Positions 1 to 58,363 of a DNA stretch of 64,000 bases are shown piece after piece. The stretch's first letter is position 1. Each line of letters starts with the position of its first letter. Where the stretch lies: contig JBAZWT010000003.1 of NCBI GenBank assembly GCA_041660205.1, forward strand, positions 7,948 to 71,947. Reading direction: 5' to 3'. Origin of the DNA: Candidatus Babeliales bacterium (GTDB lineage: Bacteria; Babelota; Babeliae; Babelales; Chromulinivoraceae). The translations under genes and the position numbers were made by a program. Below the pieces are notes generated by a model. It saw only the letters and a program-made list of their open reading frames with translations, did not search any database and had not been told where the DNA came from.

Positions 1-1242
1 AGACTGAATTAATGCATCACAACTTTTTTCAAAAATTCTAGCTTCTTCTGTTTGCTGTTTTGCTTTTAGACGTAACTTCGCTGGATTAGATAAACTTTCA
101 TCTATTTCTTCATTAGTTGGCGTATAGCTAAGATTTATTTTTTGTGCAATCTTATTTACTTTTGCTTGTACTTCTTTTAAAAACGCTTCTTTTTGTGGCA
201 ATGTTAATGTATTTAAATCTTTCTGAGCTTCTTTTTTAAACCATTCTTCTTTGCTTGTTAACAATCTTCTACTGTCTAAATCACCACCCTTAGCTTGCTT
301 AAGCACCGTATCAAAATACGCGTCTTCAGAACTGGTCAATTTTTTAAATGAACGAACAAGCCGATTCCATGTTGATTTAGAATATGATTTTTCAGCATCA
401 GCATATGCAGAACTAATAATGTCTGACATGTCAGGACGACTTTTTTCAGAATCTTTAGCAAACCGATCGATATTTTTTACAAATATTTCTTGTCGCTCGG
501 GTTTTAATTTTGCATATCGCGTATTGATATTGTTTATATCTTCATCTGTTAATTTTTCAGTAAACGCTAAGTCTAATTTTATAGCCGTATTTAATTTTGA
601 CTTTGGAGCTTGAGGCTTAGCAACTGGCTCAAAATCACTAGCGGACACAACGTCAAAAGAACTCAAAGTTTTTTCTGAGAGTAAAAATTTTCGAGCAGAT
701 TTAAGCCTTGTATCTATGATGTCAATCACAGATGGATTATTTTCTAACGTTTTAAAAGCTTTTAATTTTGCTTCGTATGCAGCATTAATAGTTGCTTCAG
801 ATGGATCACCTGACAAACCAAGTACATTTTTTGCTTTAAATAGTTTTGCTTCGCCCTTTGCTTGATCAAATTCAAACCATGCATCATTGATTGTTTTTTC
901 CATGTGACCACGTTGCGTTGTCGGCTCATTCGGTTGTACGCCTTCATCATCATCACCTTCATCACTGAAATCAAACGCTGGAGCACCTTTTTTTATTGCA
1001 GTTTGTACTGCAGCCTCTCTAGCCTTTGCAGCAGCTTCTCGTGCAATCGTTTCATACTGCTCTCTATTTTTTTGCGTTACGGCTTCTTGCTCGCGCTGTT
1101 TTTTCGCTGCAATTTCTTCTGGTATTTCTACTTTAGAACTATAATCAACGCCATCATCACCACTAAAATCAAAAGGCGCTTGCAAAGACGCTGAGGCCAA
1201 GAAACTGCACAAAAATAAAACTTTTAATACTTGCTTCTTCAT
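1..1242 (-). CDS. Exported hypothetical protein, first 414 codons (3' end runs off the window start)
   Basis: I checked this minus frame triplet by triplet from 1242 to 1 and found no stop. ATG at 1242. The N-terminus MKKQVLKVLFLCSFLASASLQA looks like a signal peptide. It is missing from the ORF track because it is open at the window edge. Lys/Glu/Ala-rich. Confidence 0.6.
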   Translation of the reverse strand, partial: MKKQVLKVLFLCSFLASASLQAPFDFSGDDGVDYSSKVEIPEEIAAKKQREQEAVTQKNREQYETIAREAAAKAREAAVQTAIKKGAPAFDFSDEGDDDEGVQPNEPTTQRGHMEKTINDAWFEFDQAKGEAKLFKAKNVLGLSGDPSEATINAAYEAKLKAFKTLENNPSVIDIIDTRLKSARKFLLSEKTLSSFDVVSASDFEPVAKPQAPKSKLNTAIKLDLAFTEKLTDEDINNINTRYAKLKPERQEIFVKNIDRFAKDSEKSRPDMSDIISSAYADAEKSYSKSTWNRLVRSFKKLTSSEDAYFDTVLKQAKGGDLDSRRLLTSKEEWFKKEAQKDLNTLTLPQKEAFLKEVQAKVNKIAQKINLSYTPTNEEIDESLSNPAKLRLKAKQQTEEARIFEKSCDALIQS

Positions 1243-7806: not shown

Positions 7807-8328
7807 ATGATCGTTATGATACAAAAAATGGTGGATAAACTTCCACCTTTTATCATTCCCCTTATCTCAAAGCTCTGCATCGTTTTGGCAGTTTTTATTG
7901 CAACTCGCATGCTTATCAGAAAAGTCAGTCCTTTAGTTCAGGATCTTTGTAGAAAAAACGAAGTTGATTCTCATTCATGCTACATTTTAAATAAAATAGT
8001 TCGATATATTTTCACTATTCTAGGTGTCACTATCGCCCTTCAAAATATCGGCTTTGAAGTATACGCCGTTTTTATGACAGCGTTTGGTATTACCGGTATC
8101 GTTTTAAGCTATGGCATGAAAGATATCGTAGCAAATTTGATTGCGGGCGTTTTGATTCTGGGTTATAAACATGTCAAAATAAATGACTACATAAAAGTAG
8201 CAGGATTTCAAGGTAAGGTAATCGACATTAATTTGCGTTACACAACGCTGCAAGACGAAGGTCAAACGGTCTTGGTTCCTAACATTGTTTTATATACAAC
8301 GACTGTCGGAATTATACTTAACAAATAA
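7807..8328 (+). CDS. Small-conductance mechanosensitive channel family protein (short MscS-like)
   Basis: TM helices followed by an MscS-type pore/beta-domain sequence: DIVANLIAGVLILGYKHVKINDYIKVAGFQGKVIDINLRYTTLQDEGQTVLVPN. At 173 aa it is shorter than canonical MscS. Confidence 0.65.
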   Translation: MIVMIQKMVDKLPPFIIPLISKLCIVLAVFIATRMLIRKVSPLVQDLCRKNEVDSHSCYILNKIVRYIFTILGVTIALQNIGFEVYAVFMTAFGITGIVLSYGMKDIVANLIAGVLILGYKHVKINDYIKVAGFQGKVIDINLRYTTLQDEGQTVLVPNIVLYTTTVGIILNK

Positions 8329-45249: not shown

Positions 45250-47822
45250 CTACGTAAGTTTCATATATTTTTTTAAATATTGGCCAGTATAACTTCCCTG
45301 CACTTGGGCCACATATTCAGGCGTTCCTTGAGCAACAATAGTTCCACCCTCAGATCCACCATCTGGACCCATATCGATAATAAAATCAGCAACTTTAAGC
45401 ACATCAAGGTTATGTTCAATAACAATAATTGAATTACCTTTATCGATTAATCGATTAAGGACTGTAAGCAATTTCACAATATCATGCGTATGCAGACCAG
45501 TTGTAGGTTCATCTAAAACGTAGAGCGTATTTTGACCACGCTTTGCAAGTTCATTAACTAATTTTATTCGCTGAGCTTCGCCGCCCGAAAGAGTGGTAGC
45601 GCATTGGCCTAATTTTACATAATCAAGACCAACATCGCACAAAAGCTGCAAGCGTTTGGCTAGTAAGCTATGCGCCTTAAAAAACTCTAAAGCTTCAAGC
45701 GCTGTCATATCAAGCACATCGGCAATATTTTTTCCTTTGTACAAAATCTGCAACGTTTCAGTGCTATAACGTCTTCCGTGGCAAACTTTACAAGTCATGA
45801 CAACGTCAGGTAGAAAATGCATGGAAACGGTTATAATTCCATCACCATGACATTTATAGCAGCGACCTTTGTTGACGTTAAAACTAAACTGTCCGACGTC
45901 GTAGCCGCGAATTTTGCTGTCTGGCAAACTTGCAAAAAGTTCTCGGATTCCATTGAAAATTCCAATGTAGGTTGCAGGATTTGAACGCGATGTTCTTCCG
46001 ATCGGACTTTGATCAATTTGCACCATATGCTCAAGATGCTCAATACCATCAATGCGTTGCTTATCAAAGATTTTCCATTTTAAATAAGAGTCTAATTCTT
46101 TATGCAGCGTTGGAACTAACTCTTCAAAAATAAGTGAACTTTTTCCTGATCCTGACACTCCAGAAACTGCACAAAGCACATGTAACGGAAATGAAACACT
46201 GACATCTTGTAAGTTATTTTTGGTTGCATGTTTTAATGTTAGAAATTTTTCAGTTGTTCGACGTTTAGTCGGAACTTTAATTTCAAGCTTTCCAGAAAGA
46301 TATTTTCCCGTCAGTGATGCTGAATTATTTTCCAATTCTTGCGGAGTTCCTACAGCAGTAACCATACCACCATGCACACCAGCTGCTGGACCCATATCGA
46401 TAACGTAGTCGGCAATGCGAATGGTATCAAGATCATGCTCAACAACGACAACCGTATTTCCCAAATCTTTTAAGGATTTTAATGTCTCAATCAATCGATC
46501 GTTATCACGTTGATGTAGTCCGATGCTTGGCTCATCAAGAATGTACAAGACACCACTTAAAGCACAGCCCACTTGCTTGGCCAAACGAATTCTCTGCCCT
46601 TCTCCACCTGAAAGCGTACGCGCAGTACGATTAAGCGAAAGGTACGACAAGCCAACATTGACCAAAAACTGTAAACGCTGACATGATTCGAGTAAAATAG
46701 TATGAGCAATTTCTGACTCAAATTCTGATAATTTTAAATTTTGCAAAAAAGATACTGCCTGATCAATAGACAGCTCACCAATTTCAAAAATATTTTTTCC
46801 ACCGATAGTTACCGACAATGCTTGTTTTGAAAGACGCTGTCCTTGACATAGATGACACGGTTTAACCTGGCGACCCATGTATAAATAATAGCCTTCATCT
46901 TCTTGCTCATGCTCAACACCAAGACCGTCACATGCACTGCATGCACCGATCGGAGAGTTAAATGAGAAAAAGCGTGGTTCAAGTTCAGGAAAAGCAACTT
47001 GGCAACCTAAGCACATCCGCTTTGATGAATACAGCGTACTCTGTCCATCCACTTGAAGTTTGCACAAACCATCAGCAAAATCGAAACTTTTCTGAACTGC
47101 TTCTTGGATGCGAGACAAACAATCATCATCTTGATCAATGGTAATACTATCAAGAAGAACATCGATTGAATGTTTATAACTTTTTTTCAGACCTAGCTCT
47201 TCGATTTGATCAACATGAGAAATTTTATGCAATTGACCGTCAATGACAAAACGATAAAAACCTTTTGCTAAAAAGTCTGCTAACTCATGCTTAAATTCAC
47301 CTTTGCGTTCTTGAACAACAGGAGCAACGATGGTAACAACTTTTTGCCCGTACGCCTCAAGAGCGTACTGTGCGATTTGACTTGCACTATAAGCTCTAAT
47401 TTCTTTAAAACACTCAGTACAATGCGGGATACCGATGCGAGCATACAAAATGCGCAAATAATCATAGAGCTCAGTAATCGTTCCTACTGTTGAGCGAGGA
47501 TTGTGACCTACTGTTTTTTGTTCTATTGCAATAGCTGACACAAACCATCAATGCGGTCAAAATCTGGTTTTTTTGCAATTCCTAAAAATTGACGGGCATA
47601 GGATGAAAGAGATTCCATGTATCGGCGCTTACCTTCAACAAATAAAACATCGAGAGCAAGCGAGCTTTTACCAGATCCAGAAGGACCTGTAATAACGACT
47701 AAAGAATCTTTAGGAATGGAAACATTAATATTTTTTAAATTGTGCTCACGAGCACCTATAACACGAATTTCACTTTTCAAGACTAGCCCTTCTAAGAATA
47801 TATACTTCATAAAAGCAAGCAT
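45250..47822 (-). pseudogene. uvrA: Excinuclease ABC subunit UvrA, split by a 1-nt frameshift near 47537 (or a sequencing error)
   Basis: The 99-aa ORF ([34 protein letters not shown]...DRIDGL) and the 763-aa ORF ([20 protein letters not shown]...) are contiguous UvrA sequence in different frames. Adding one C to tgtcagct would give GLCPAIAIEQK. The likely true start is TTG 47780 or ATG 47810. Confidence 0.85.
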
Positions 47823-49264: not shown

Positions 49265-49341
<77 letters not shown>

Positions 49342-49443
49342 AAAATTCAAAAATCTTTGATAAGTCATTAAAAAATCAACCTAAGACAATGTCAAAGTTG
49401 TCAATAGGAAACACAAAATCGCATCTACAGCGATTTTGCATGT

Positions 49444-49519
49444 CGGGGCGTAGCGCAATTGGTAGCGCACTCGCTTTGGGAGCGAGGGGTTGTGAGTTCA
49501 AGTCTCGCCGCCCCGACCA
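49444..49519 (+). tRNA. tRNA-Pro (anticodon UGG), copy 1, CCA encoded
   Basis: Hand-folded. Acceptor CGGGGCG/CGCCCCG, anticodon stem CTCGC/GCGAG with loop TTTGGGA, T arm GTGAG-TTCAAGT-CTCGC. 76 nt. Confidence 0.9.
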
Positions 49520-49608
49520 CTTGTTTCAGCATGAAGCAAGTGGTCGGTAAACCGATTTTTCAAAATGATTCAAATGGTCGGAAGCACTTATACTCTAAGA
49601 GATAACAA

Positions 49609-50436
49609 ATGTTTGCTTTTACCAAATTAACCAACCATGGATCATCGCATCCTATCCAAGCACGAATAGCTATTTTTTTATATGAACTCATACAAAAAAC
49701 AGACCTCACAACTATACAAAAAGATAGCCTCTCCAAGCTTTCGTATGATTTAGCCCAAGATTTAATTGAAGCAGAAAAGTACGGCTTAAACTTACTGAAC
49801 GATATAAAAAGAATCAATCATGACTGGCTAGAGAAAAATAATGATTTTCTCAAAAATCAACCTCTTACTTCATATCAATCTCTAACCTCTCCCAAAGACA
49901 TTCTAATTTTTTTAAAGAATGCAAAATCATCATTAAGAAAAGTTGGAACAATTATCGGCATAATTTTTGAAAAGGACCGAGAGGCTGCTCTTGATAAAAA
50001 GACAACCAACAAACACCCTTGGTATCAAGCCTACAAAAAGGGTAACTTTCAAGAGATTCTAAATGATCTCAAAAAACAATTAAAAGCAGACCTAAATCAC
50101 CCATTGCCTAAAATAATTCAAGATTATAGCAATTGGTTAGAATTCATTAGTTTTTTTCGTGATGAAGATGAACATCCAAAGACTTTCGACGATTTCATCC
50201 AAAATTATAAAATAACGCGTTCAAATGATTTCTATACGCTCGCAAAACCGCAATTTCAAGATGGAACAGATGTCGAATTGTTTTTAGAAAAATCACTACG
50301 GTACTTGCTCTTGTTTTCAGAAGAAATATGTATACTCTCTCTTTTAGAAAAAACTGATAGCCTATACCAATTATTGGAAATCGCAGAAAACGATCGCGAC
50401 AAGGCGTGTCCAAAAAAATTTAAATTTGCTATCTAA
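49609..50436 (+). CDS. Hypothetical all-helical cytoplasmic protein with an R-x4-H motif (candidate HEPN/Abi-like)
   Basis: 275 aa with no signal peptide. FISFFRDEDEHPKTF contains RDEDEH. No other motif recognised. Confidence 0.4.
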   Translation: MFAFTKLTNHGSSHPIQARIAIFLYELIQKTDLTTIQKDSLSKLSYDLAQDLIEAEKYGLNLLNDIKRINHDWLEKNNDFLKNQPLTSYQSLTSPKDILIFLKNAKSSLRKVGTIIGIIFEKDREAALDKKTTNKHPWYQAYKKGNFQEILNDLKKQLKADLNHPLPKIIQDYSNWLEFISFFRDEDEHPKTFDDFIQNYKITRSNDFYTLAKPQFQDGTDVELFLEKSLRYLLLFSEEICILSLLEKTDSLYQLLEIAENDRDKACPKKFKFAI

Positions 50437-50446
50437 AATACGCAAA

Positions 50447-50719
50447 TTAACTCATAATTCCCTTTTTCAATAAATCCGCAAAACAAGCCCTAAACCAGGC
50501 TGCCACTTTTGTGACTATTGAGTAAGAACTATTCATGCGTTTGCGATATGTGATTTTTAATGCTCCCGAAACAGGCTCCGCCATTATACCCAAAGGCTCT
50601 ACCCTAAAAAACCGCCCTTGCTTGTTTTTGTATAACTCAAAAGAATCTATAGATTGCAGATTTGAACATAATTTTCTTGAAACATGCTGCTTTTTCTCCC
50701 AATAAACAGACCAATTCAT
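50447..50719 (-). CDS. Small hypothetical protein
   Basis: Start at ATG 50719, 4 nt after GGAGGG. 90 aa. Convergent with 49609-50436. No family recognised. Confidence 0.35.
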   Translation of the reverse strand: MNWSVYWEKKQHVSRKLCSNLQSIDSFELYKNKQGRFFRVEPLGIMAEPVSGALKITYRKRMNSSYSIVTKVAAWFRACFADLLKKGIMS

Positions 50720-51067
50720 AGAGCCCTCCATAACAATCGAAATAGATAAACAAATCGCTCCCAAGACATAGCGTCCAATCTTATATTACAATAATATATT
50801 TATTTTTTATAAAACAGCTCTCTCTGCAGAGTCTTAATTAAATGATTGGGGGGCTGTTGCACGAAGTTCTTCATGAATTAATATAATAGTGGGGATTAGT
50901 AGTTACTTATTGCCTATTTAAAGAGATTTTGATTTATTATGTTTAAAAAATTTTTCAAATTTGTGTTATGGATGCACGGCATCGCATTTCCGCCATATGC
51001 TTTGTATTGGTTACTATACAGAAAGTAAATTATCAATATGTCCTGTAGGGGGACTTTAGGAGGCATT

Positions 51068-51385
51068 ATGAAAAAAGTATCATCCAATGATTCAAAAAAC
51101 ATGTTGTATATTGCGGCATCGATAGGGATCATCATTTTTGCTGGCTCAAAATTTTTGAATGAGTATTCAAGTTTTCAAAAAAAACGAACCATGGATAATG
51201 ATTATAGGCAAAAATTAAAATGGCAGCATGAATGTGCAAAGGAACATAAAACCGATGTTATGTGGGAATATACCCAACGGCAAATCAAGGAAATAAGGTC
51301 AAAAATGCTTCATGATGGATATAGTCATTCTGCTATAGATAAATTAGACACAGACACGTTTCTAGGAGTTCATAATTGTATTTAG
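51068..51385 (+). CDS. Small single-pass membrane protein, array member 1
   Basis: Start at ATG 51068 after TAGGAGG. TM segment MLYIAASIGIIIFAG. C-terminal motif KMLHDGYSHSAIDKL is shared with members 2 and 3. Confidence 0.55.
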   Translation: MKKVSSNDSKNMLYIAASIGIIIFAGSKFLNEYSSFQKKRTMDNDYRQKLKWQHECAKEHKTDVMWEYTQRQIKEIRSKMLHDGYSHSAIDKLDTDTFLGVHNCI

Positions 51386-51424
51386 CAAAGTCATAACTTA
51401 GTATCATCGCACAGGAGGTTTCAC

Positions 51425-51832
51425 ATGGAACAACGATCAATCACTAAACCAAAAAACATACTATACATAGCTATTGCCTTAGGCATAGGCACATTAATTT
51501 GCATAAAATTATATAAAACATTCGAAGAGATAAAGCTCCATAAGAATAAAGTCCGCGATAGAATCGGAATGGATTTATTTTATGAGAATAAAATAGAATA
51601 TTTTTATTTACTAGGGAAGGAGCATCCTGATATCACTTATGATAATTTACAAGTTCCCATCAACGAATGGAAATCAAGAATGCTTTCTGATGGGTATAAA
51701 TACTATGAAATTGACAAAATAGCTCAATCCGCTCGAGAAAATGCTTCAATAAGATATAAAGAAAAAAAACAATTTCATCAAACTTGTGACGCCTTAGTAA
51801 CTTATTTAGAAAAACTAGACAATGAAGAATAA
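51425..51832 (+). CDS. Small single-pass membrane protein, array member 2
   Basis: AGGAGG Shine-Dalgarno. MEQRSITKPKNILYIAIALGIGTLICIKLYKT. Motif RMLSDGYKYYEIDKI. Confidence 0.6.
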   Translation: MEQRSITKPKNILYIAIALGIGTLICIKLYKTFEEIKLHKNKVRDRIGMDLFYENKIEYFYLLGKEHPDITYDNLQVPINEWKSRMLSDGYKYYEIDKIAQSARENASIRYKEKKQFHQTCDALVTYLEKLDNEE

Positions 51833-51856
51833 ACTATAATCTATAGGGGGTTTCAC

Positions 51857-52282
51857 ATGGAACAAAAATCATACAATCAACCAAAAAAGATATTATATCT
51901 ATCTATTTCTTTGGCAATAGTCACTTTCTCTGGCATAAAGCTATATAAAACATGGCAAGAAATACAAACGAAAAAAGAAGTAGATCAAAAAAGAAAATAT
52001 GCTCATTCAGCATATGAACATAAAAAACAACAACAGGAAAATAAAAATCGAATGGACAATTTCTATCTAAACGAATTCAAAAAAAAGAGCGAAAACTTTT
52101 GGATAGCTACATGCATGAATCCTGATTATGCACCTACTTATCTAAGAGAAATAGAGGCTGATGAAGCAAAGATTGAAAATAAAATGTATCAAGACGGTTA
52201 TTCTAATATGGATATTGGAATAATTAAAAACAAAGCTAGACAATTGGCTACAGAAGTTTTGAAGAATTTTAAAAAAACATAA
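51857..52282 (+). CDS. Small single-pass membrane protein, array member 3
   Basis: GGGGG Shine-Dalgarno. MEQKSYNQPKKILYLSISLAIVTFSGIKLYKT. Motif KMYQDGYSNMDIGII. Confidence 0.6.
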   Translation: MEQKSYNQPKKILYLSISLAIVTFSGIKLYKTWQEIQTKKEVDQKRKYAHSAYEHKKQQQENKNRMDNFYLNEFKKKSENFWIATCMNPDYAPTYLREIEADEAKIENKMYQDGYSNMDIGIIKNKARQLATEVLKNFKKT

Positions 52283-52312
52283 TAAAAAATACTTAATCAA
52301 AAGGGATCAAAA

Positions 52313-52588
52313 ATGAATAGAGCAACAATCTACTCATTCATAGTTCTTTTATTAGGGCTACAATTTCAGGCATTAGACGCTAAAAAGAAAAGCTTAAGCT
52401 TTAATCAACCATCAAAGCCAGTAAAAACAACAAAGAAAAAACCTTATGTAAAAAAAACTATCCACGAAGGCTTAGGCAAAAGAAGTAAAAAAAATGGAAT
52501 GATAAAAACCAAAAGTGTTTCAAGCCATTTTAAACGCAGCTCTAAAGGAGGAAACACACTGGTCAATGCTTATTCCAGAAGTAAATAA
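52313..52588 (+). CDS. Small exported, extremely basic (Lys-rich) protein inside the array
   Basis: Signal peptide MNRATIYSFIVLLLGLQFQALDA followed by a Lys/Ser-rich region of about 68 aa. Confidence 0.5.
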   Translation: MNRATIYSFIVLLLGLQFQALDAKKKSLSFNQPSKPVKTTKKKPYVKKTIHEGLGKRSKKNGMIKTKSVSSHFKRSSKGGNTLVNAYSRSK

Positions 52589-52610
52589 AATATAATCCAT
52601 AGGAGCCTTC

Positions 52611-53123
52611 ATGGAACAAAAATCATATCAACAACCAAATCAAAAAATGATTAAACAATTTTTATTTATTTTAACAATTTTATCATTCCATGGTGCTTTT
52701 CATGCTTTTCATGAGATATTGCACGATAAATCGATTAAGACTACAAAAGCTTATATTAGTAGTTATACACTAGGCACAAGTTTTACTAATTCACCTATCA
52801 CCCGTAGATGGATGAATAGAAATATACTAAAAACAATGAAGCGTAGAGCCATAAAAGGTCTATTATGGCAAGGCGACAAAGTAATAGTACGCTTTTATAA
52901 CAATCCAACCCAAGAAGAGTATGACATTTATGTTAAATGCCTTAGCACTCAATTATCAGGGATTATGGAGTATAAAATTACATTCACGGATTATATTCTT
53001 ATTAGCTTGAAACATGGGTCTTTTACGCGCGATCAGTTTCAAATTTTTTTAGATAAAATTAACGCATCGATTGAAGATAATGGCGATAAAGAATTAAATG
53101 TTCTAAATCAAGAACATTTTTAA
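52611..53123 (+). CDS. Single-pass membrane protein, array member 4 (shared N-terminus, different C-terminal domain)
   Basis: AGGAG Shine-Dalgarno. MEQKSYQQPNQKMIKQFLFILTILSF. The start region is conserved at the DNA level with members 2 and 3. Confidence 0.55.
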   Translation: MEQKSYQQPNQKMIKQFLFILTILSFHGAFHAFHEILHDKSIKTTKAYISSYTLGTSFTNSPITRRWMNRNILKTMKRRAIKGLLWQGDKVIVRFYNNPTQEEYDIYVKCLSTQLSGIMEYKITFTDYILISLKHGSFTRDQFQIFLDKINASIEDNGDKELNVLNQEHF

Positions 53124-53443
53124 AATAACCCTTATTGCCTTCATAACAAAAACATCGTATTATCAATATAAATCCACAACTTTTTTGGAATATTAACATA
53201 TTTGCAACTTAGACCGCAGTATTTGTGTTAATTGCTCTTTTAATTTTTTCCACTGAAAAGTTCGAAGTGCACACATTGACTGCGACCATTTTTAAAAGAC
53301 TTTTCTTTAACAAGTGCCTTCTTGTCCTGTGCATAGGTGAATACGGTGATTCACTATCCAGGCTGGCACAAAATACCAGACAAAATAATTCTAATCTTAA
53401 CAATTTAAAGTCCATCTATCTCTGCACATGAAAGGGAACTCTC

Positions 53444-53911
53444 ATGACACATATTTGGTTCATCCTAGCCCTATTCTGGCTCTTTTTAGAAATGGGCAAT
53501 CCAGGATTGTTTTATTTTCTTTCCATCGCATTTGGATCTTTTATGGCTTTTGTAGCAAGTCTATACAACCTTGATATTGCAGCACAATGCACCATTTGTC
53601 TTACAGGATCTCTAGGGATGCTTTTTTTATTGCAGACCTATGTGAAAAAAAGTCAAAAAAATAAATCATCCAAAATGTATCAATCAAACATGTACCAACT
53701 CATAGGCAAAACTATAGAAATTACAGAAATAACATCTGCAACTTCTGGTTACGGAAAAATTAACGGAGAAACATGGTCCGTTAAATCACAAGGCAATAAA
53801 AGCTTAACCGTAGGGATGCTTGCAATAATTACAGGCGTTCAAGGTTGTCATTTGCAAATCAATAGTTTAGCAAACGATAGTTTATCAAACGATAGTTTAA
53901 TCAACGATTAA
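53444..53911 (+). CDS. NfeD-family membrane protein
   Basis: N-terminal TM helices plus a C-terminal OB-like LIGKTIEITEITSATSGYGKINGETWSVKS. Directly upstream of the SPFH gene, the classical NfeD-SPFH operon arrangement. Confidence 0.75.
   Translation: MTHIWFILALFWLFLEMGNPGLFYFLSIAFGSFMAFVASLYNLDIAAQCTICLTGSLGMLFLLQTYVKKSQKNKSSKMYQSNMYQLIGKTIEITEITSATSGYGKINGETWSVKSQGNKSLTVGMLAIITGVQGCHLQINSLANDSLSNDSLIND
53861..53908. repeat. Three tandem 15-bp units at the 3' end of the nfeD-like gene
   Basis: aatagtttagcaaac / gatagtttatcaaac / gatagtttaatcaac, encoding NSLAN-DSLSN-DSLIN-D*. Confidence 0.8.
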
Positions 53912-53931
53912 TCCAAGAAAGGGATTTTATT

Positions 53932-54918
53932 ATGTTGTTATTTGAAATTGGAATATTTTTTATTCTACCACTCATAGTGCTCGCAGCACTTATTGCAAAA
54001 AGCACAATACTTGTCAAACAAGCAGAAACCGTGATTATTGAACGACTGGGTAAATTCGATCGAATTTTAACTCCAGGACTTCATTTCATTGTTCCTTTTA
54101 TAGAACAACCCCGTTACTGCCTATGGACGTTTCTTTATTTTTCACCCCATAAACGATATGAAACGTTTTCTAGATATTTTTATCGCATTGATTTAAGAGA
54201 ATCAGTCTATGAATTCCCAAAGCAAAACGTGATCACAAAAGATAACGTTATGATGGAAATTAATGCACTTTTATACTATCAAATCACTGACGTTAAAGCT
54301 GCTGTGTATGAAGTATCAAACCTACCAGAAGCAATTGAAAAAATAACTCAAACGACACTACGTAACGTTATCGGTTCTTTAGACCTTGATGAATCACTTA
54401 TCTCTCGTGATCAAATTAACACGAAACTTCGCATCATCCTTGATGAAGCAACTGATAAATGGGGCGTGAAAATTAACCGCGTTGAGCTGCAAGAAGTAAA
54501 TCCACCGCGCGACATTCAAATTGCCATGGAAAAACAAATGCGCGCAGAAAGGGATCGTCGAGCAATTATTTTAGAAGCTGAAGGCGCAAAACGTTCTGCT
54601 ATTTTAAATGCTGAAGGTGAAAAAGAATCAGAAATTTTAACAGCTCAAGGTCAGGCAGAAGCAAAAATTATTGCAGCCGAAGCTGAAGCATGGTCTCGAT
54701 TAAAATTTGCTGAAGCTGAAGCAAAATCACTTGAAGTCATGAAAGCAGCAATTCCTGGTATAGATCCTGTGCAATATTTAACTGCATTAAAATATATCCA
54801 AGCTTTGCCAGAAATGACAAAAGGCGCGAATAATAAATTGATTATAGTTCCTTACGAAGCTTCAGGACTTGCAAACTCTGTAGCATCAATTAAAAAAATA
54901 TTTGAAGAAGTAAAATAA
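53932..54918 (+). CDS. SPFH/band-7 (stomatin/prohibitin-like) protein
   Basis: N-terminal TM, then ILVKQAETVIIERLGKF, NVITKDNVMMEINALLYYQITD and WGVKINRVELQEVNPP, followed by an Ala/Glu-rich coiled coil. Confidence 0.85.
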   Translation: MLLFEIGIFFILPLIVLAALIAKSTILVKQAETVIIERLGKFDRILTPGLHFIVPFIEQPRYCLWTFLYFSPHKRYETFSRYFYRIDLRESVYEFPKQNVITKDNVMMEINALLYYQITDVKAAVYEVSNLPEAIEKITQTTLRNVIGSLDLDESLISRDQINTKLRIILDEATDKWGVKINRVELQEVNPPRDIQIAMEKQMRAERDRRAIILEAEGAKRSAILNAEGEKESEILTAQGQAEAKIIAAEAEAWSRLKFAEAEAKSLEVMKAAIPGIDPVQYLTALKYIQALPEMTKGANNKLIIVPYEASGLANSVASIKKIFEEVK

Positions 54919-55093
54919 CTTTTCAATATAAAACTCAAAAAACATATGGCTGCCAAAAATGGTGGCCATTTGTTTTTATGCCTATGCACGAGAACAATTC
55001 ACCAAAATTATTCATATATATTTACACTGAAAAATGTTTTGATTAAATTGATTTTCTATACCCAAAATCACAACTCAACCAAAAGGATCTACC

Positions 55094-55567
55094 TTGAAAC
55101 ATTTTTCTACTCTCTGTACAGCGCTACTTTTTTTTGCAACACAGATCAACGCTATCGATTATTCAAAAGAAATAAAAAAAGAATTTGACGAAACAGCAAC
55201 GACTATTGTTGGTAAATTTGAAAAAAACTCTTACACACTTTCAAAAGATTTTGAACAATGCAACAACGCAATAATTCCTCTATTGTGCTACAAAAAAGTT
55301 CTTGCCGATATTGAAGCTGAACAAACAAAAAACTCTAAAGCTTTACGAGACTGTTTTTTGGCAACTATAGGAATTTATACAATAAAAACTATAACAATTT
55401 CTATCGCATCAGCATTGTTACCTCAACGCGGAACAAACACTGTCAGTGACACAATGAACGCAACGCAAACTCCTGTTACATTAAGCCTTTCTGCTTTAAC
55501 AGTAGACCAATGTGCTTTATACTTTTTAGCCTCTAATGTCCGCGAAAAGCTTTCAGTCATACGTTAA
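55094..55567 (+). CDS. Exported hypothetical protein
   Basis: TTG start 7 nt after AAAGGA. Signal peptide MKHFSTLCTALLFFATQINA. Confidence 0.45.
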   Translation: MKHFSTLCTALLFFATQINAIDYSKEIKKEFDETATTIVGKFEKNSYTLSKDFEQCNNAIIPLLCYKKVLADIEAEQTKNSKALRDCFLATIGIYTIKTITISIASALLPQRGTNTVSDTMNATQTPVTLSLSALTVDQCALYFLASNVREKLSVIR

Positions 55568-55643
55568 AAACGTAATCATAAAAAAAGAGCTCTTGAAAAG
55601 ATCGAAAAAATCGGTAGATTGCTAATGTTCACACTTTAAATGT

Positions 55644-55719
55644 CGGGGCGTAGCGCAATTGGTAGCGCACTCGCTTTGGGAGCGAGGGGTTGTGAGTTCA
55701 AGTCTCGCCGCCCCGACCA
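55644..55719 (+). tRNA. tRNA-Pro (anticodon UGG), copy 2, identical to copy 1
   Basis: 76/76 identical to 49444-49519. Confidence 0.9.
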
Positions 55720-55863
55720 GCTTTCGCCAAGGCTTCAGCTGGCACGGCCATCACCGAATGAATTCAAAACTTTAATCAAAAAAATAAATTAAATCTTACA
55801 AGCGAAAGCTGCCCGCCAAAGCTTTAGCGGCGGCTGGGCAATAAAAATAAAAAGTCATTAAGT

Positions 55864-56106
55864 ATGTATTACGTTTATCTTCTTAGATCAATTAATTTTC
55901 CAGACAAAAAATATATCGGATTTACTGATAATTTTTCAGAACGATTACTAACTCATAATTCAGGCAACTCTCCTCATACCAAATTACATAAACCCTGGAA
56001 AACAGAATTGTTAATTGGTTTTGACGATAAAATGAAAGCTGCTGCTTTTGAAAAATATTTAAAATCTGGCGCAGGTCGAGCATTTGCAAAAAAAAGATTT
56101 TGGTAA
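55864..56106 (+). CDS. Stand-alone GIY-YIG nuclease-domain protein (UPF0213/YhbQ-like)
   Basis: MYYVYLLRSINFPDKKYIGFTDNFSERLLTHNSG...PW...AAAFEKYLKSGAGRAF gives the GIY...YIG...R...H/N...E pattern. 80 aa. Confidence 0.8.
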   Translation: MYYVYLLRSINFPDKKYIGFTDNFSERLLTHNSGNSPHTKLHKPWKTELLIGFDDKMKAAAFEKYLKSGAGRAFAKKRFW

Positions 56107-56315
56107 AGCTTTCCTTCAGCATGAAACAAGTGGTCGACAGGCCGACCTTTCAAAATGATTTTTCTTTAATCAGTGCTATTCGCACAAAATATTAAAACTT
56201 AGCTCCATAAACAAATCCTTAAAATAAAACCCCCTACCCCTTTTGCAAAGGGCAATTTTAACAATTAAAATGTTATAGTCTCATATTTTTAATGTTTTGT
56301 TTCTTAGGGGGAACT

Positions 56316-56939
56316 GTGAACAAATTGTATATTTTCACATCTGCGCTATTGTTACTCAATGGATCAACGGCCCATTCAATCGATATTTTTCATGAAATTT
56401 CTCAAGGAAATCTATCTAGAAACACTCAAAGCTGGTTAAAGAGTCCTGAAAGTAAAACTATGGTAAATGACTATGGACAGACCATTTTACATCAAGCGGT
56501 GTTGACAGGAAACATGCGTGTCATAAAACAAATAGCAATCTCTAACGTTGATATTAACGCTCTGGATAAAGATGGAAAAACCGCTTTAGATTATGCTGTT
56601 GATTATGGCTATAAAAGTGCCATCCACTATTTGCTCAAAAAAAATGCTTCTGTTACCACACAGGAAAACGCTTTTTTCATTAAAAAACTGCTCCAGCCAA
56701 TATCAATTATCAATAAAGTAATAAAAACAATATTTATTATAGGGGCAGTTGCCTTCACTTTTGGGATCACACTCCTACTTCTTAGCATCCCGCTAGCATC
56801 ATTAGGAGGCTTATTGGCATTTATACAAGTCGGTCTTCCAGGGCTAGGTATCATAGCGATAAGCGCTCCTTTCCTATCATTGACTAATTATGCCAATATA
56901 CCAATGAACAAATACTACACAATGAAAATTACTGCATAA
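56316..56939 (+). CDS. Ankyrin-repeat protein with signal-like N-terminus and C-terminal TM helices
   Basis: GTG 56316 after GGGGGA. GQTILHQAVLTGNMRVIKQIAISNVDINALDKDGKTALDYAVDYGYKSAIHYLLKKNASV. Two hydrophobic C-terminal segments. Confidence 0.75.
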   Translation: MNKLYIFTSALLLLNGSTAHSIDIFHEISQGNLSRNTQSWLKSPESKTMVNDYGQTILHQAVLTGNMRVIKQIAISNVDINALDKDGKTALDYAVDYGYKSAIHYLLKKNASVTTQENAFFIKKLLQPISIINKVIKTIFIIGAVAFTFGITLLLLSIPLASLGGLLAFIQVGLPGLGIIAISAPFLSLTNYANIPMNKYYTMKITA

Positions 56940-56991
56940 AACGCTTAACAAGTGACTGTTCCAGATAAACTTAATTTTATATTTCAAGATC

Positions 56992-57032
56992 AAAAAAGCT
57001 GGTTGTTATTATTTAACAACCAGCTTTTTTGT
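56992..57032. terminator. Bidirectional rho-independent terminator
   Basis: Stem aaaagctggttgtta / taacaaccagctttt, between convergent genes. Confidence 0.8.
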
Positions 57033-57073
57033 TGAGCTCTTTTTTACACAAACCAAATGGACGCTGTAATCAT

Positions 57074-57604
57074 CTAGGGCAAAGTTGTAACGTAAACATC
57101 GCAAATACGTTCTGTTTTATCGACTTCCATCTTATCAAAATCATCAAAACCAGGATCTCCTGGTTCAAAAAACTTTATTTCTTCTATGCCTATGGTGCAT
57201 TCTCTAACAGCTGCACGTTGAGCAGCGTCAAGAAAATTTTGCAAAATGGGATCCATTGATTTTAAAATGTTTAACTTACAGTTACGAAACGGCAATTTAA
57301 TATTACTGCCTGATAAAATATCAAAGCATAACTGTAATGACATATCCTCAACCCAAATGTATAACGTAACAGGTCCTTTATATTTATTTTTTTTCAATTG
57401 CATAGATTTATAATGCTTGAGTTCTGCAAAAAAGTTTTGCAAATCTTGCAAGGTAACTTTTGCAACAAAGTCATAGTCGAACATAATACCCCAGGTATTA
57501 TAATCAAGTTCTTCCTTTTGCCTAGAAGCTTTTCCAGTTATCAATATATCTTCTTCTAAAAGCTCTTTAAAATCTGAGTGTTTTGTAATTTTTATATAGT
57601 TCAT
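57074..57604 (-). CDS. Hypothetical cytoplasmic protein
   Basis: 176 aa with no signal peptide. Its ATG overlaps (ATGA) the stop of a start-less 44-codon upstream frame. Confidence 0.5.
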   Translation of the reverse strand: MNYIKITKHSDFKELLEEDILITGKASRQKEELDYNTWGIMFDYDFVAKVTLQDLQNFFAELKHYKSMQLKKNKYKGPVTLYIWVEDMSLQLCFDILSGSNIKLPFRNCKLNILKSMDPILQNFLDAAQRAAVRECTIGIEEIKFFEPGDPGFDDFDKMEVDKTERICDVYVTTLP

Positions 57605-57928
57605 GATAAAAATTTAATCTCCGAATATGGTATAAATTTGCCAACTGAACCTTTGTGTTTACCAAGAATTTTTTGTCCTAAAGTATCAGCATCAAAAGTC
57701 CATTCAAATCCTTTTGAAAAATAAGTATTTCTACTTCAAATCATAACAAACCCACTAAAATATCACCACAGATTCCTAACAGGTTTCTATTATTTTCAAA
57801 GTAAGATGATTAAAAAAACTAGATATACTTATTTTTAATTTTTTGCAGATTGCACTTTGCAGAACTTTGGCAAGATGGTACTCTAGACTTCTATAGAGTA
57901 GTTTTTCATAGCACAATCAACGATACCA

Positions 57929-58363
57929 ATGACGCAAAAAAATCAATCTTCTTTTACAATTTCCGACCTTGTTTCACTCGCAACAACCATGCAACAGAGC
58001 GCTATTGCTACCTACAGTAATTTTAAAGTTGGCGCGTCACTTCGCAGCTCAGATGGAACTTTTATTGGTGGTTTTAATATCGAATCTGTTTCATACGGTC
58101 TGACTATGTGTGCTGAACGTGTTGCCATTTTTTCAGCGCTGACAGCAGGACACAACACATTTACCCATCTTGCACTTGTTACCGATATTGGCGTTTTTCC
58201 TTGCGGAGCGTGCCGACAAATGATATATGAATTTTGTAGCGACGCGATCATCATTATTGCAACACCGCAGAGAGTCATTGCAACAACAACAATTAAAGAA
58301 CTTATGCCTCATGCATTTTGCGATAACGATCTTGAACAATCTAAAAAAAGGTTAATTTCATGA
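57929..58363 (+). CDS. cdd: Cytidine deaminase
   Basis: Zinc-binding motifs CAERVAIFSA and PCGACRQMIYEF. 144 aa. Confidence 0.85.
   Translation: MTQKNQSSFTISDLVSLATTMQQSAIATYSNFKVGASLRSSDGTFIGGFNIESVSYGLTMCAERVAIFSALTAGHNTFTHLALVTDIGVFPCGACRQMIYEFCSDAIIIIATPQRVIATTTIKELMPHAFCDNDLEQSKKRLIS

Follow-up and report, generated by a model that had tools for sequence, protein, structure and literature searches.

The tRNA-Pro locus

The DNA analysed here, referred to below as the window, is a stretch of 64,000 nucleotides (nt) from a metagenome-assembled genome (MAG) of the Dependentiae (Babeliales) that comprises 1.02 Mb in 17 contigs; it corresponds to positions 7948–71947 of contig C3. The window contains two copies of the gene for tRNA-Pro(UGG), which is the sole proline tRNA and the sole duplicated isoacceptor among the 33 tRNA genes of this genome. 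These copies bracket an nfeD-SPFH gene pair together with accessory-looking DNA, and the bracket is likely to be an old duplication around a relocated native operon. Both copies are encoded on the plus strand (Pro1, 49444..49519; Pro2, 55644..55719) and were identified by ARAGORN and Rfam. A preliminary description of the window had reported them as identical over 79 nt including three leader nucleotides. The identity is indeed exact, but extends over 80 nt with four leader bases (49440–49519 and 55640–55719). Pro1 belongs to a His-Pro tRNA locus that is conserved across the family and is headed by tRNA-His(GUG) (49266..49341, plus strand; ARAGORN and Rfam), and the gap between the two tRNA genes contains a leader hairpin (49411..49441, plus strand). 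Pro2 has a promoter-like site of its own, TTGAAA-16-TAGATT (55593..55620, plus strand), situated 23 nt upstream of the gene, and the 60 nt around this site are 95% identical to the closest relative, G008.

Downstream of Pro1, the 3′ end of the tRNA and a first trailer block (49520..49570, plus strand) pair as a 16-bp hairpin (49513–49547; −28.4 kcal/mol, z −5.2), with a U-run and a TTTCAAAATGATT box after it. This hairpin block recurs behind Pro2, as had been noted before, with 39 of 46 positions (85%) identical between 49525–49570 and 56115–56160. There, a 395-nt insert (55720–56114) sits between the tRNA and its displaced trailer (block 2, 56115..56176, plus strand). A third, degenerate trailer block (53253..53318, plus strand) has no adjoining tRNA and scores 44 against 18.6 ± 3.9 in shuffles. 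Its 3′ half is closer to the trailer of tRNA-Ser(UGA) than to the Pro trailers, and a TTTAAATGACTTNTCTTTAA box with a terminator hairpin is repeated 3′ of several tRNA genes of the genome.

The preliminary list of the genes between the two copies proved correct, and Pfam backs its assignment of nfeD and SPFH; a GIY-YIG gene lies just outside the bracket. The protein encoded by nfeD (53444..53911, plus strand) carries the NfeD C-terminal domain (PF01957, E 1.7e-8) and is followed by an SPFH/Band-7 protein (53932..54918, plus strand; PF01145, E 2.2e-40). The pair thus has the domains and the usual adjacent order of the NfeD-SPFH (stomatin/HflK-like) membrane operons, from which it differs in genomic position alone, between two tRNA-Pro genes. 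A third gene, for a fast-evolving protein of 157 amino acids (aa) with a hydrophobic N-terminus (55094..55567, plus strand), occupies the same position in G008, G002 and G003 with 28–52% identity. NCBIfam gave no match for the NfeD, 157-aa or GIY-YIG proteins or for a 275-aa protein encoded behind Pro1, and matched the SPFH protein to HflK/HflC models below their cut-offs only.

Distribution of the arrangement in the genus

The locus was compared by DNA search with 30 related genomes, nine of them from the same genus (labels of the type G001 denote relatives' genomes). Two tRNA-Pro copies, 2.4–8.0 kb apart, are present in six of the nine congeners, while all other genera have a single copy. 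According to the gene maps, nfeD-SPFH is the common core that lies between the copies in the congeners, following His-Pro, and in the subclade nearest to this genome a homolog of the 157-aa protein is enclosed as well. In G008, whose UvrA is 97% identical, the order is uvrA-...-His-Pro1-nfeD-SPFH-orf155-Pro2-cdd-283aa-518aa, and G002 has the same minimal interval of 2.4 kb. G003 retains both tRNA-Pro copies with an SPFH fragment alone between them. The preliminary description had regarded the whole 6.1-kb segment as lineage-specific. This is true of the left ~3.7 kb, which deviate in composition and are absent at this locus from all nine congeners, but not of the right third (53444–55567), which is found in the same place in congeners. 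The synteny comparison that had been proposed hence gives a divided answer, as the congeners share both tRNA-Pro genes with nfeD-SPFH between them, but not the left part.

Among the congeners with a single tRNA-Pro, G004 and G009 are devoid of any SPFH gene and G007 retains a 98-aa remnant on another contig. In the tree of UvrA proteins these three genomes form a clade that is sister to G001, G005 and G006 (support 87/92). Because the single-copy clade is nested, one later loss is favoured, such as recombination between direct repeats would be expected to cause; one subclade thus probably lost the interval in this way.

Several further observations concern individual members of the genus. In G001 (L016, 6890–8523), nfeD-SPFH is turned around with respect to the two tRNA-Pro genes, which are themselves in direct orientation. 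This implies an internal rearrangement of the interval in which the tRNA repeats took no part. The SPFH gene has been cut down to an open reading frame (ORF) of ~98 aa in both G007 (L082, C34 180–470), where it lies on a contig different from that of the His-Pro locus, and G003 (the fragment in L015); in the reduced ORF, a hydrophobic segment from the N-terminus is joined to the final ~70 residues. The uvrA gene of the present genome is split into overlapping ORFs of 99 and 763 aa (window positions 45250–47822, minus strand), and its ortholog in G005 likewise consists of two ORFs, while other relatives have one ORF of ~840–880 aa.

Probable concerted evolution of the tRNA-Pro copies

Within each of the seven two-copy genomes the tRNA-Pro pair is identical, and the pairs differ between genomes. 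Five derived substitutions were found, each of them in both copies of its lineage: G9A and G57A are shared by G000, G002 and G008, whereas G7A, T47C and C66T are private to G005, with positions 7 and 66 forming a compensatory pair. The length of the repeat varies as well, from 80 nt in G000 and G006 to 99 nt in G005 and ~260 nt in G008 (82%) and G003 (93%). Moreover, two tandem copies of the Pro1 leader hairpin stand between the Pro2 promoter region and Pro2 in G008, and a Pro1-type leader also precedes Pro2 in G003, as would be consistent with a longer conversion tract. Since purifying selection alone would not put the same new substitutions into both copies, the shared substitutions and the variable repeat length indicate, at the level of sequence comparison, gene conversion with tracts of variable extent. 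Synteny and a congruent phylogeny of the enclosed genes point to a single origin of the pair.

One additional feature was seen in the flanks of the G008 copies (L014, 6290–6390 and 8793–8890), where a stretch of ~49 nt enclosed by the inverted repeats TTCAGTTTTTTC and GAAAAAACTGAA is oppositely oriented behind Pro1 and Pro2. This flip corresponds to an inversion inside the hairpin loop between the two repeat copies.

Such behaviour is known from other duplicated RNA genes, which evolve in concert by gene conversion, for example the rRNA operons of Escherichia coli (PMC8022953) and tRNA gene families (PMC4981973). The tRNA-Pro pair resembles these systems in that copies are identical within but different between genomes, tract length is variable, and the direct repeats are able to delete the interval. 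It differs from them in comprising the two copies of the sole proline tRNA of a reduced 1-Mb genome and in enclosing a relocated protein operon, and conversion is here suggested by sequence patterns.

Origin of the nfeD-SPFH core

For gene families, counts were made among 31 Babeliales genomes. SPFH is single-copy in 24 of the 25 genomes with a match, and outside the genus nfeD-SPFH has no tRNA gene closer than 8 kb. At two outgroup loci, the neighbours of nfeD-SPFH on both sides match the present genome's own contig C2 (C2:107710–93442). The site on C2 that corresponds to the position of the operon in the outgroups (~C2:101311–101790) is empty, and a tblastn search for an nfeD-SPFH remnant at this ancestral site gave the C3 copy only. 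The SPFH copies of the genus are monophyletic (support 95/96), and their internal topology matches that of the UvrA tree. The segment comprising nfeD, SPFH and the 157-aa gene (segment B) also has an ordinary composition, with its G+C content (GC) at the 12.9th percentile and its tetranucleotide distance at the 31.7th. Judged by these comparisons, nfeD-SPFH appears as a native operon that came to the tRNA-Pro locus in a single move and was passed on vertically from then on. Because the SPFH and UvrA trees agree, a single capture in the ancestor of the genus is the simplest history. Duplication-mediated capture, which had been mentioned as the second possibility in the preliminary description, accordingly fits this core, as it was relocated from another site. 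The conserved synteny of the core and its ordinary composition are thus largely what had been named there as the mark of an old, stable duplication, as opposed to an acquired islet; in addition, its phylogeny follows that of the species.

Accessory DNA in the two tRNA-Pro trailers

In this genome, the trailer of Pro1 is interrupted by segment A (49571..53252, approximate boundaries). The first part of the trailer follows Pro1 and the third, degenerate copy stands just before nfeD, at the right edge of segment A, from which it follows that ~3.7 kb were inserted into the trailer. In G008, a ~160-nt trailer lies between Pro1 and nfeD. Its alignment with 53200–53443 was within the shuffle range, and the boundary rests on the trailer match within the present genome. 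The composition check that had been proposed set the two parts of the interval apart, segment A deviating and the nfeD-SPFH-157-aa part being ordinary. The GC of 49520–53443 is 32.0%, which is the 0.7th percentile of same-length genome intervals, and its tetranucleotide distance is at the 93.5th percentile. The designation as an accessory islet next to a tRNA consequently applies to segment A, but not to the whole 6.1 kb.

The first gene of segment A encodes the 275-aa protein (49609..50436, plus strand) that had been presumed to be HEPN-like. It contains the motif R184-x4-H189. In a 38-member alignment of the family, H189 is present in all sequences and R184 in at least 90%, and the consensus RNxxEHP agrees with the HEPN motif R-x4-6-H. 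The protein itself has no Pfam match, and three of the 38 relatives match PF18739 (HEPN_Apea) weakly (best E 7.6e-4). A model based on the alignment reached a predicted local distance difference test score (pLDDT) of 91.3, compared with 38 for AlphaFold on the single sequence. With this model, Foldseek found no PDB match at E ≤ 0.001 (best TM-score 0.27), and the family profile retrieved nothing from the PDB sequences. Among the 31 Babeliales genomes, the family is restricted to this genome and one genome of another genus. By its motif and the weak profile matches the protein is a candidate product of a patchily distributed (Apea-like) HEPN gene; the earlier guess is thereby strengthened, but membership in the family is not demonstrated, as neither Pfam nor a PDB fold gave a match. 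An interpretation as an ORFan, suggested by a word-index search that returned the protein itself only, was rejected, as a full phmmer scan gave 73 relatives of similar length. This miss reflects a sensitivity limit of the word index, so that the self-only result for a 141-aa protein of the same segment is no proof of orphan status.

The 275-aa gene is followed by a convergent ORF of 105 aa without family match and of uncertain coding status (50447..50764, minus strand), and by an array of five genes for small, N-terminally hydrophobic proteins of 115, 135, 141, 91 and 170 aa (51038..53123, plus strand). The 115-, 135- and 141-aa proteins, and weakly also the 170-aa protein, are local tandem paralogs with 32–36% identity. 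Neither the rest of the genome nor the retrieved loci of relatives yielded a paralog of the array or of the other segment A genes.

Behind Pro2, ~2.1 kb (55720–57832) are specific to this genome, and homology with G008 restarts at 57833. Exactly from the CCA end of the tRNA to the displaced trailer (55720–56114, 395 bp), this DNA is made up of a cassette consisting of a structured GC-rich element and an 80-aa, domain-only GIY-YIG gene, which are treated in the next section. The remaining part (56177..57832) carries genes for an ankyrin-repeat membrane protein (56292–56939, plus strand) and a 176-aa orphan (57074–57604, minus strand). The first backbone gene thereafter is cdd, encoding cytidine deaminase (57929..58363, plus strand), which directly follows Pro2 in G008.

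The DNA behind Pro1 and that behind Pro2 differ in content in every genome and include, for instance, a DnaJ-ankyrin protein in G003 and HExxH-motif membrane or secreted proteins. The tRNA-Pro locus is, in this respect, an ordinary tRNA-linked insertion hotspot. In the gap between Pro1 and nfeD of G005 (L018), HExxH-motif membrane proteins occur together with ORFs that by eye resemble transposases of the IS5 (two-ORF) and IS30 types.

A structured element at tRNA 3′ ends

The element behind Pro2 (55720..55841, plus strand) starts on the base after the CCA and is predicted to fold into an 8-bp closing helix with an inner hairpin, followed by a 3′ hairpin. The GIY-YIG gene downstream of it (55864..56106, plus strand; PF01541, E 2.2e-13) is thus encoded 3′ of Pro2 on the strand of the tRNA. 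A covariance model was built from ten copies of the element, in which 7 of 23 predicted pairs show compensatory changes, and gave 17 matches of ~120–170 nt in this genome; the element is GC-rich and occurs in two sequence subtypes (GCTTTCGCC... and GTCTTCG...). Nine matches follow a tRNA at zero gap, namely Phe, Leu(CAA), Leu(UAA), Leu(GAG), Pro2, Tyr, Arg(ACG), Ser(GCU) and Cys(GCA), and a tenth lies at +19 nt behind Arg(UCG). One further match is located right behind the gene for transfer-messenger RNA (tmRNA; confirmed by Rfam), and most of the remaining ones are still preceded by CCA. The sites include C3:76387, C1:37650, C4:46706–46874, C4:69318 and C6:16126–16259, furthermore C2:32440–32559, C4:47826, C4:47563 and C4:69072, and others. 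The element is present in 20 of the 31 Babeliales genomes. Among its 32 matches in relatives, 21 abut a tRNA or tmRNA gene, 24 are preceded by CCA and 14 stand upstream of a GIY-YIG gene; many copies are without such a gene. A search of Rfam gave no family match for the element at E ≤ 1, and a literature search found no paper that describes a CCA-abutting element or GIY-YIG cassette in the Dependentiae.

Five copies of the GIY-YIG gene exist in this genome, and three of these (at Pro2, Phe and Ser-UGA) are less than 200 nt away from the 3′ end of a tRNA. In the Babeliales it is patchily distributed and partly pseudogenised (20 of 31 genomes). A free-standing GIY-YIG homing endonuclease gene is known from the tRNA gene cluster of phage T4 (SegB; PMC2330249). 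Similar to SegB-type genes, the copies described here are small, lie among tRNA genes, and are patchy and multi-copy with some pseudogenes. In contrast to these, the predicted product comprises ~80 aa of catalytic domain only, without a DNA-binding domain, and a structured element of ~120–170 nt is fused to the CCA end of the tRNA. Co-conversion of flanking DNA is a known consequence of homing-type GIY-YIG nucleases. Theta ribozymes, which are minimal ribozymes related to that of hepatitis delta virus (HDV), reportedly also occur directly behind phage tRNA genes, and the predicted RNA structure of the element likewise begins immediately after the tRNA 3′ end. An HDV-like or theta-ribozyme fold was nevertheless rejected, by inspection of the helix order only, as the 8-bp helix closes the inner hairpin and an AU-rich linker and is then followed by a separate 3′ hairpin, as opposed to a nested pseudoknot.

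Two other tRNA genes have duplicated ends near such DNA. At tRNA-Ser(UGA) (C4:39860–40428, minus strand), a leaderless GIY-YIG gene is flanked on either side by the final 19 nt of the tRNA together with a hairpin/trailer block, which constitutes a small-scale version of the tRNA-Pro bracket. On contig C15, two elements (1339–1500 and 6–130, minus strand), one with a GIY-YIG gene, each stand behind a hairpin ending in GGGACGCCA. This sequence matches the 3′ end of tRNA-Glu, whose gene precedes the two elements by 8.9 and 10.2 kb on that strand.

History of the locus and alternative explanations

Taken together, these results make it probable that the bracket is an old, vertically inherited duplication of tRNA-Pro around a relocated native operon, which is kept identical by gene conversion and carries young nested insertions in both trailers, and that the two tRNA genes are not the ends of one recent island. 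According to this scenario, the nfeD-SPFH operon of the genus ancestor would have left a tRNA-free site and landed behind tRNA-His–tRNA-Pro together with a second complete tRNA-Pro. Intragenomic gene conversion would since have kept the copies identical, with tracts of ~80 to 260 nt depending on the genome, and one subclade would probably have lost the interval again by direct-repeat recombination. The short trailers 3′ of each tRNA-Pro would have served as insertion sites for accessory DNA that differs from genome to genome. In the present genome, ~3.7 kb of AT-rich DNA with the candidate HEPN gene and the array of small membrane proteins may have entered the Pro1 trailer in this manner, and ~2.1 kb, led by the tRNA-end GIY-YIG cassette exactly at the CCA, the DNA behind Pro2.

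Several points weigh against this scenario. Its founding step, the joint appearance of the second tRNA copy and the relocated operon, is left unexplained. The nesting of the single-copy clade is moderately supported (87/92), and one gain after the split of this clade fits equally well. Gene conversion is deduced from substitutions shared within a gene of 76 nt, and segment A is delimited by similarities that are short and AT-rich, the best of them with a z of ~6.5. Furthermore, every genome compared is a MAG, and that of G003 is fragmented with 4% contamination.

A first alternative attributes both the duplication and the hotspot to the GIY-YIG elements as by-products of their activity: the nuclease would break DNA at tRNA 3′ ends, and repair from ectopic or sister copies would copy the tRNA, capture DNA and homogenise the tRNA-Pro pair. 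We consider this explanation rather improbable, although an element or a remnant of it abuts tRNA-Pro in 7 of 10 genomes of the genus, behind Pro1 or Pro2 and in G003 behind both. It would also suit the GIY-YIG gene bracketed by repeats of the last 19 nt and trailer of tRNA-Ser(UGA), the remnants of the tRNA-Glu 3′ end carried by the C15 cassettes 8.9 and 10.2 kb downstream of that gene, and the trailer copies that bracket segment A itself. However, all this is association only, with no known nuclease activity or target, and since 10 of the 33 tRNA genes carry the element, its co-occurrence with tRNA-Pro is weak evidence. In addition, the flanks in G008 are homogenised without an element at either copy, and ordinary RecA-dependent conversion explains the identity equally well. 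In its broadest form, the same idea would hold that the structured element, with the predicted mini GIY-YIG nuclease as an optional component, renders tRNA 3′ ends prone to recombination. Sequence from the tRNA end would then be duplicated through breaks or RNA-linked events at the CCA junction, to an extent of 9–19 nt for tRNA-Glu and tRNA-Ser and of the complete gene for tRNA-Pro. Such events would also capture the DNA between the repeats and homogenise the copies, and the tRNA-Pro bracket would be the largest surviving product of an undescribed, integrase-free mode of insertion. This is a speculative proposal to which we give little credence; the end-duplications at other tRNAs motivate a causal link between element and insertion, but do not prove it.

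Less plausible still is a classical island, in which an element used a site-specific recombinase to integrate into tRNA-Pro, restoring a copy of the tRNA, and was subsequently deprived of its integrase, as had been suggested in the preliminary description. In tRNA-linked islands, integrase-mediated attachment (att) sites lie in the 3′ part of tRNA or tmRNA genes. The locus recalls such islands in its direct repeats at a tRNA gene, in the variable accessory-looking DNA directly 3′ of the tRNA, in the tRNA-end and trailer repeats that flank inserts, including the 3′-end duplications around inserted DNA at tRNA-Ser(UGA) and tRNA-Glu, and in the deviant composition of its newest insert, the low-GC left part. 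No trace of an integrase was found on the contig, however: a six-frame search of the genome with PF00589 at E ≤ 1 gave nothing on C3, its matches lying on C7 and C9 (above the cut-off) and, weakly, on C4. Pfam likewise detected no recombinase among the ORFs of the interval, with no separate search made with serine recombinase models. The repeat spans the entire tRNA including its 5′ end and four leader nt, not an att core from the 3′ part, and Pro2 has its own promoter-like site, conserved in this genome and its nearest relatives; in both features the bracket is unlike a 3′-partial att repeat. The cargo, too, falls into two parts. The low-GC DNA (49571–53252) forms a nested insertion of its own, which neither the closest relative nor the other congeners have, whereas nfeD-SPFH with the 157-aa gene is a native, housekeeping-type core of ordinary composition that is kept between the copies across the genus. 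For the 6.1 kb as a unit, the synteny already speaks largely against a classical island.

An assembly artefact or chimeric contig, with the second tRNA-Pro or segment A joined at short repeats, might be suspected in a 17-contig MAG to whose assembly segment A is unique, but is very unlikely, as seven separate MAG assemblies, of which four or more stem from different sampling projects, have both copies, the exact repeat is only 80 nt long, and the flanks of segment A run on into the homologous trailer and nfeD as in a true insertion.

Implications

What looked like a decayed island is thus more probably a duplication as old as the genus, which encloses a relocated native operon and in which younger insertions are nested, and the locus offers a clear small example of how the two genes for the sole proline tRNA of a 1-Mb genome evolve in concert. 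Moreover, it draws attention to tRNA trailers as sites of gene flux in the Dependentiae that operate without a visible integrase. The wider interest lies in a by-product of the analysis, the CCA-fused element at tRNA genes and tmRNA, which is sometimes accompanied by a minimal GIY-YIG gene. Should a causal link exist between these elements and the end-duplications of tRNA genes, this would suggest that DNA can be inserted at such genes by a route that needs no integrase.

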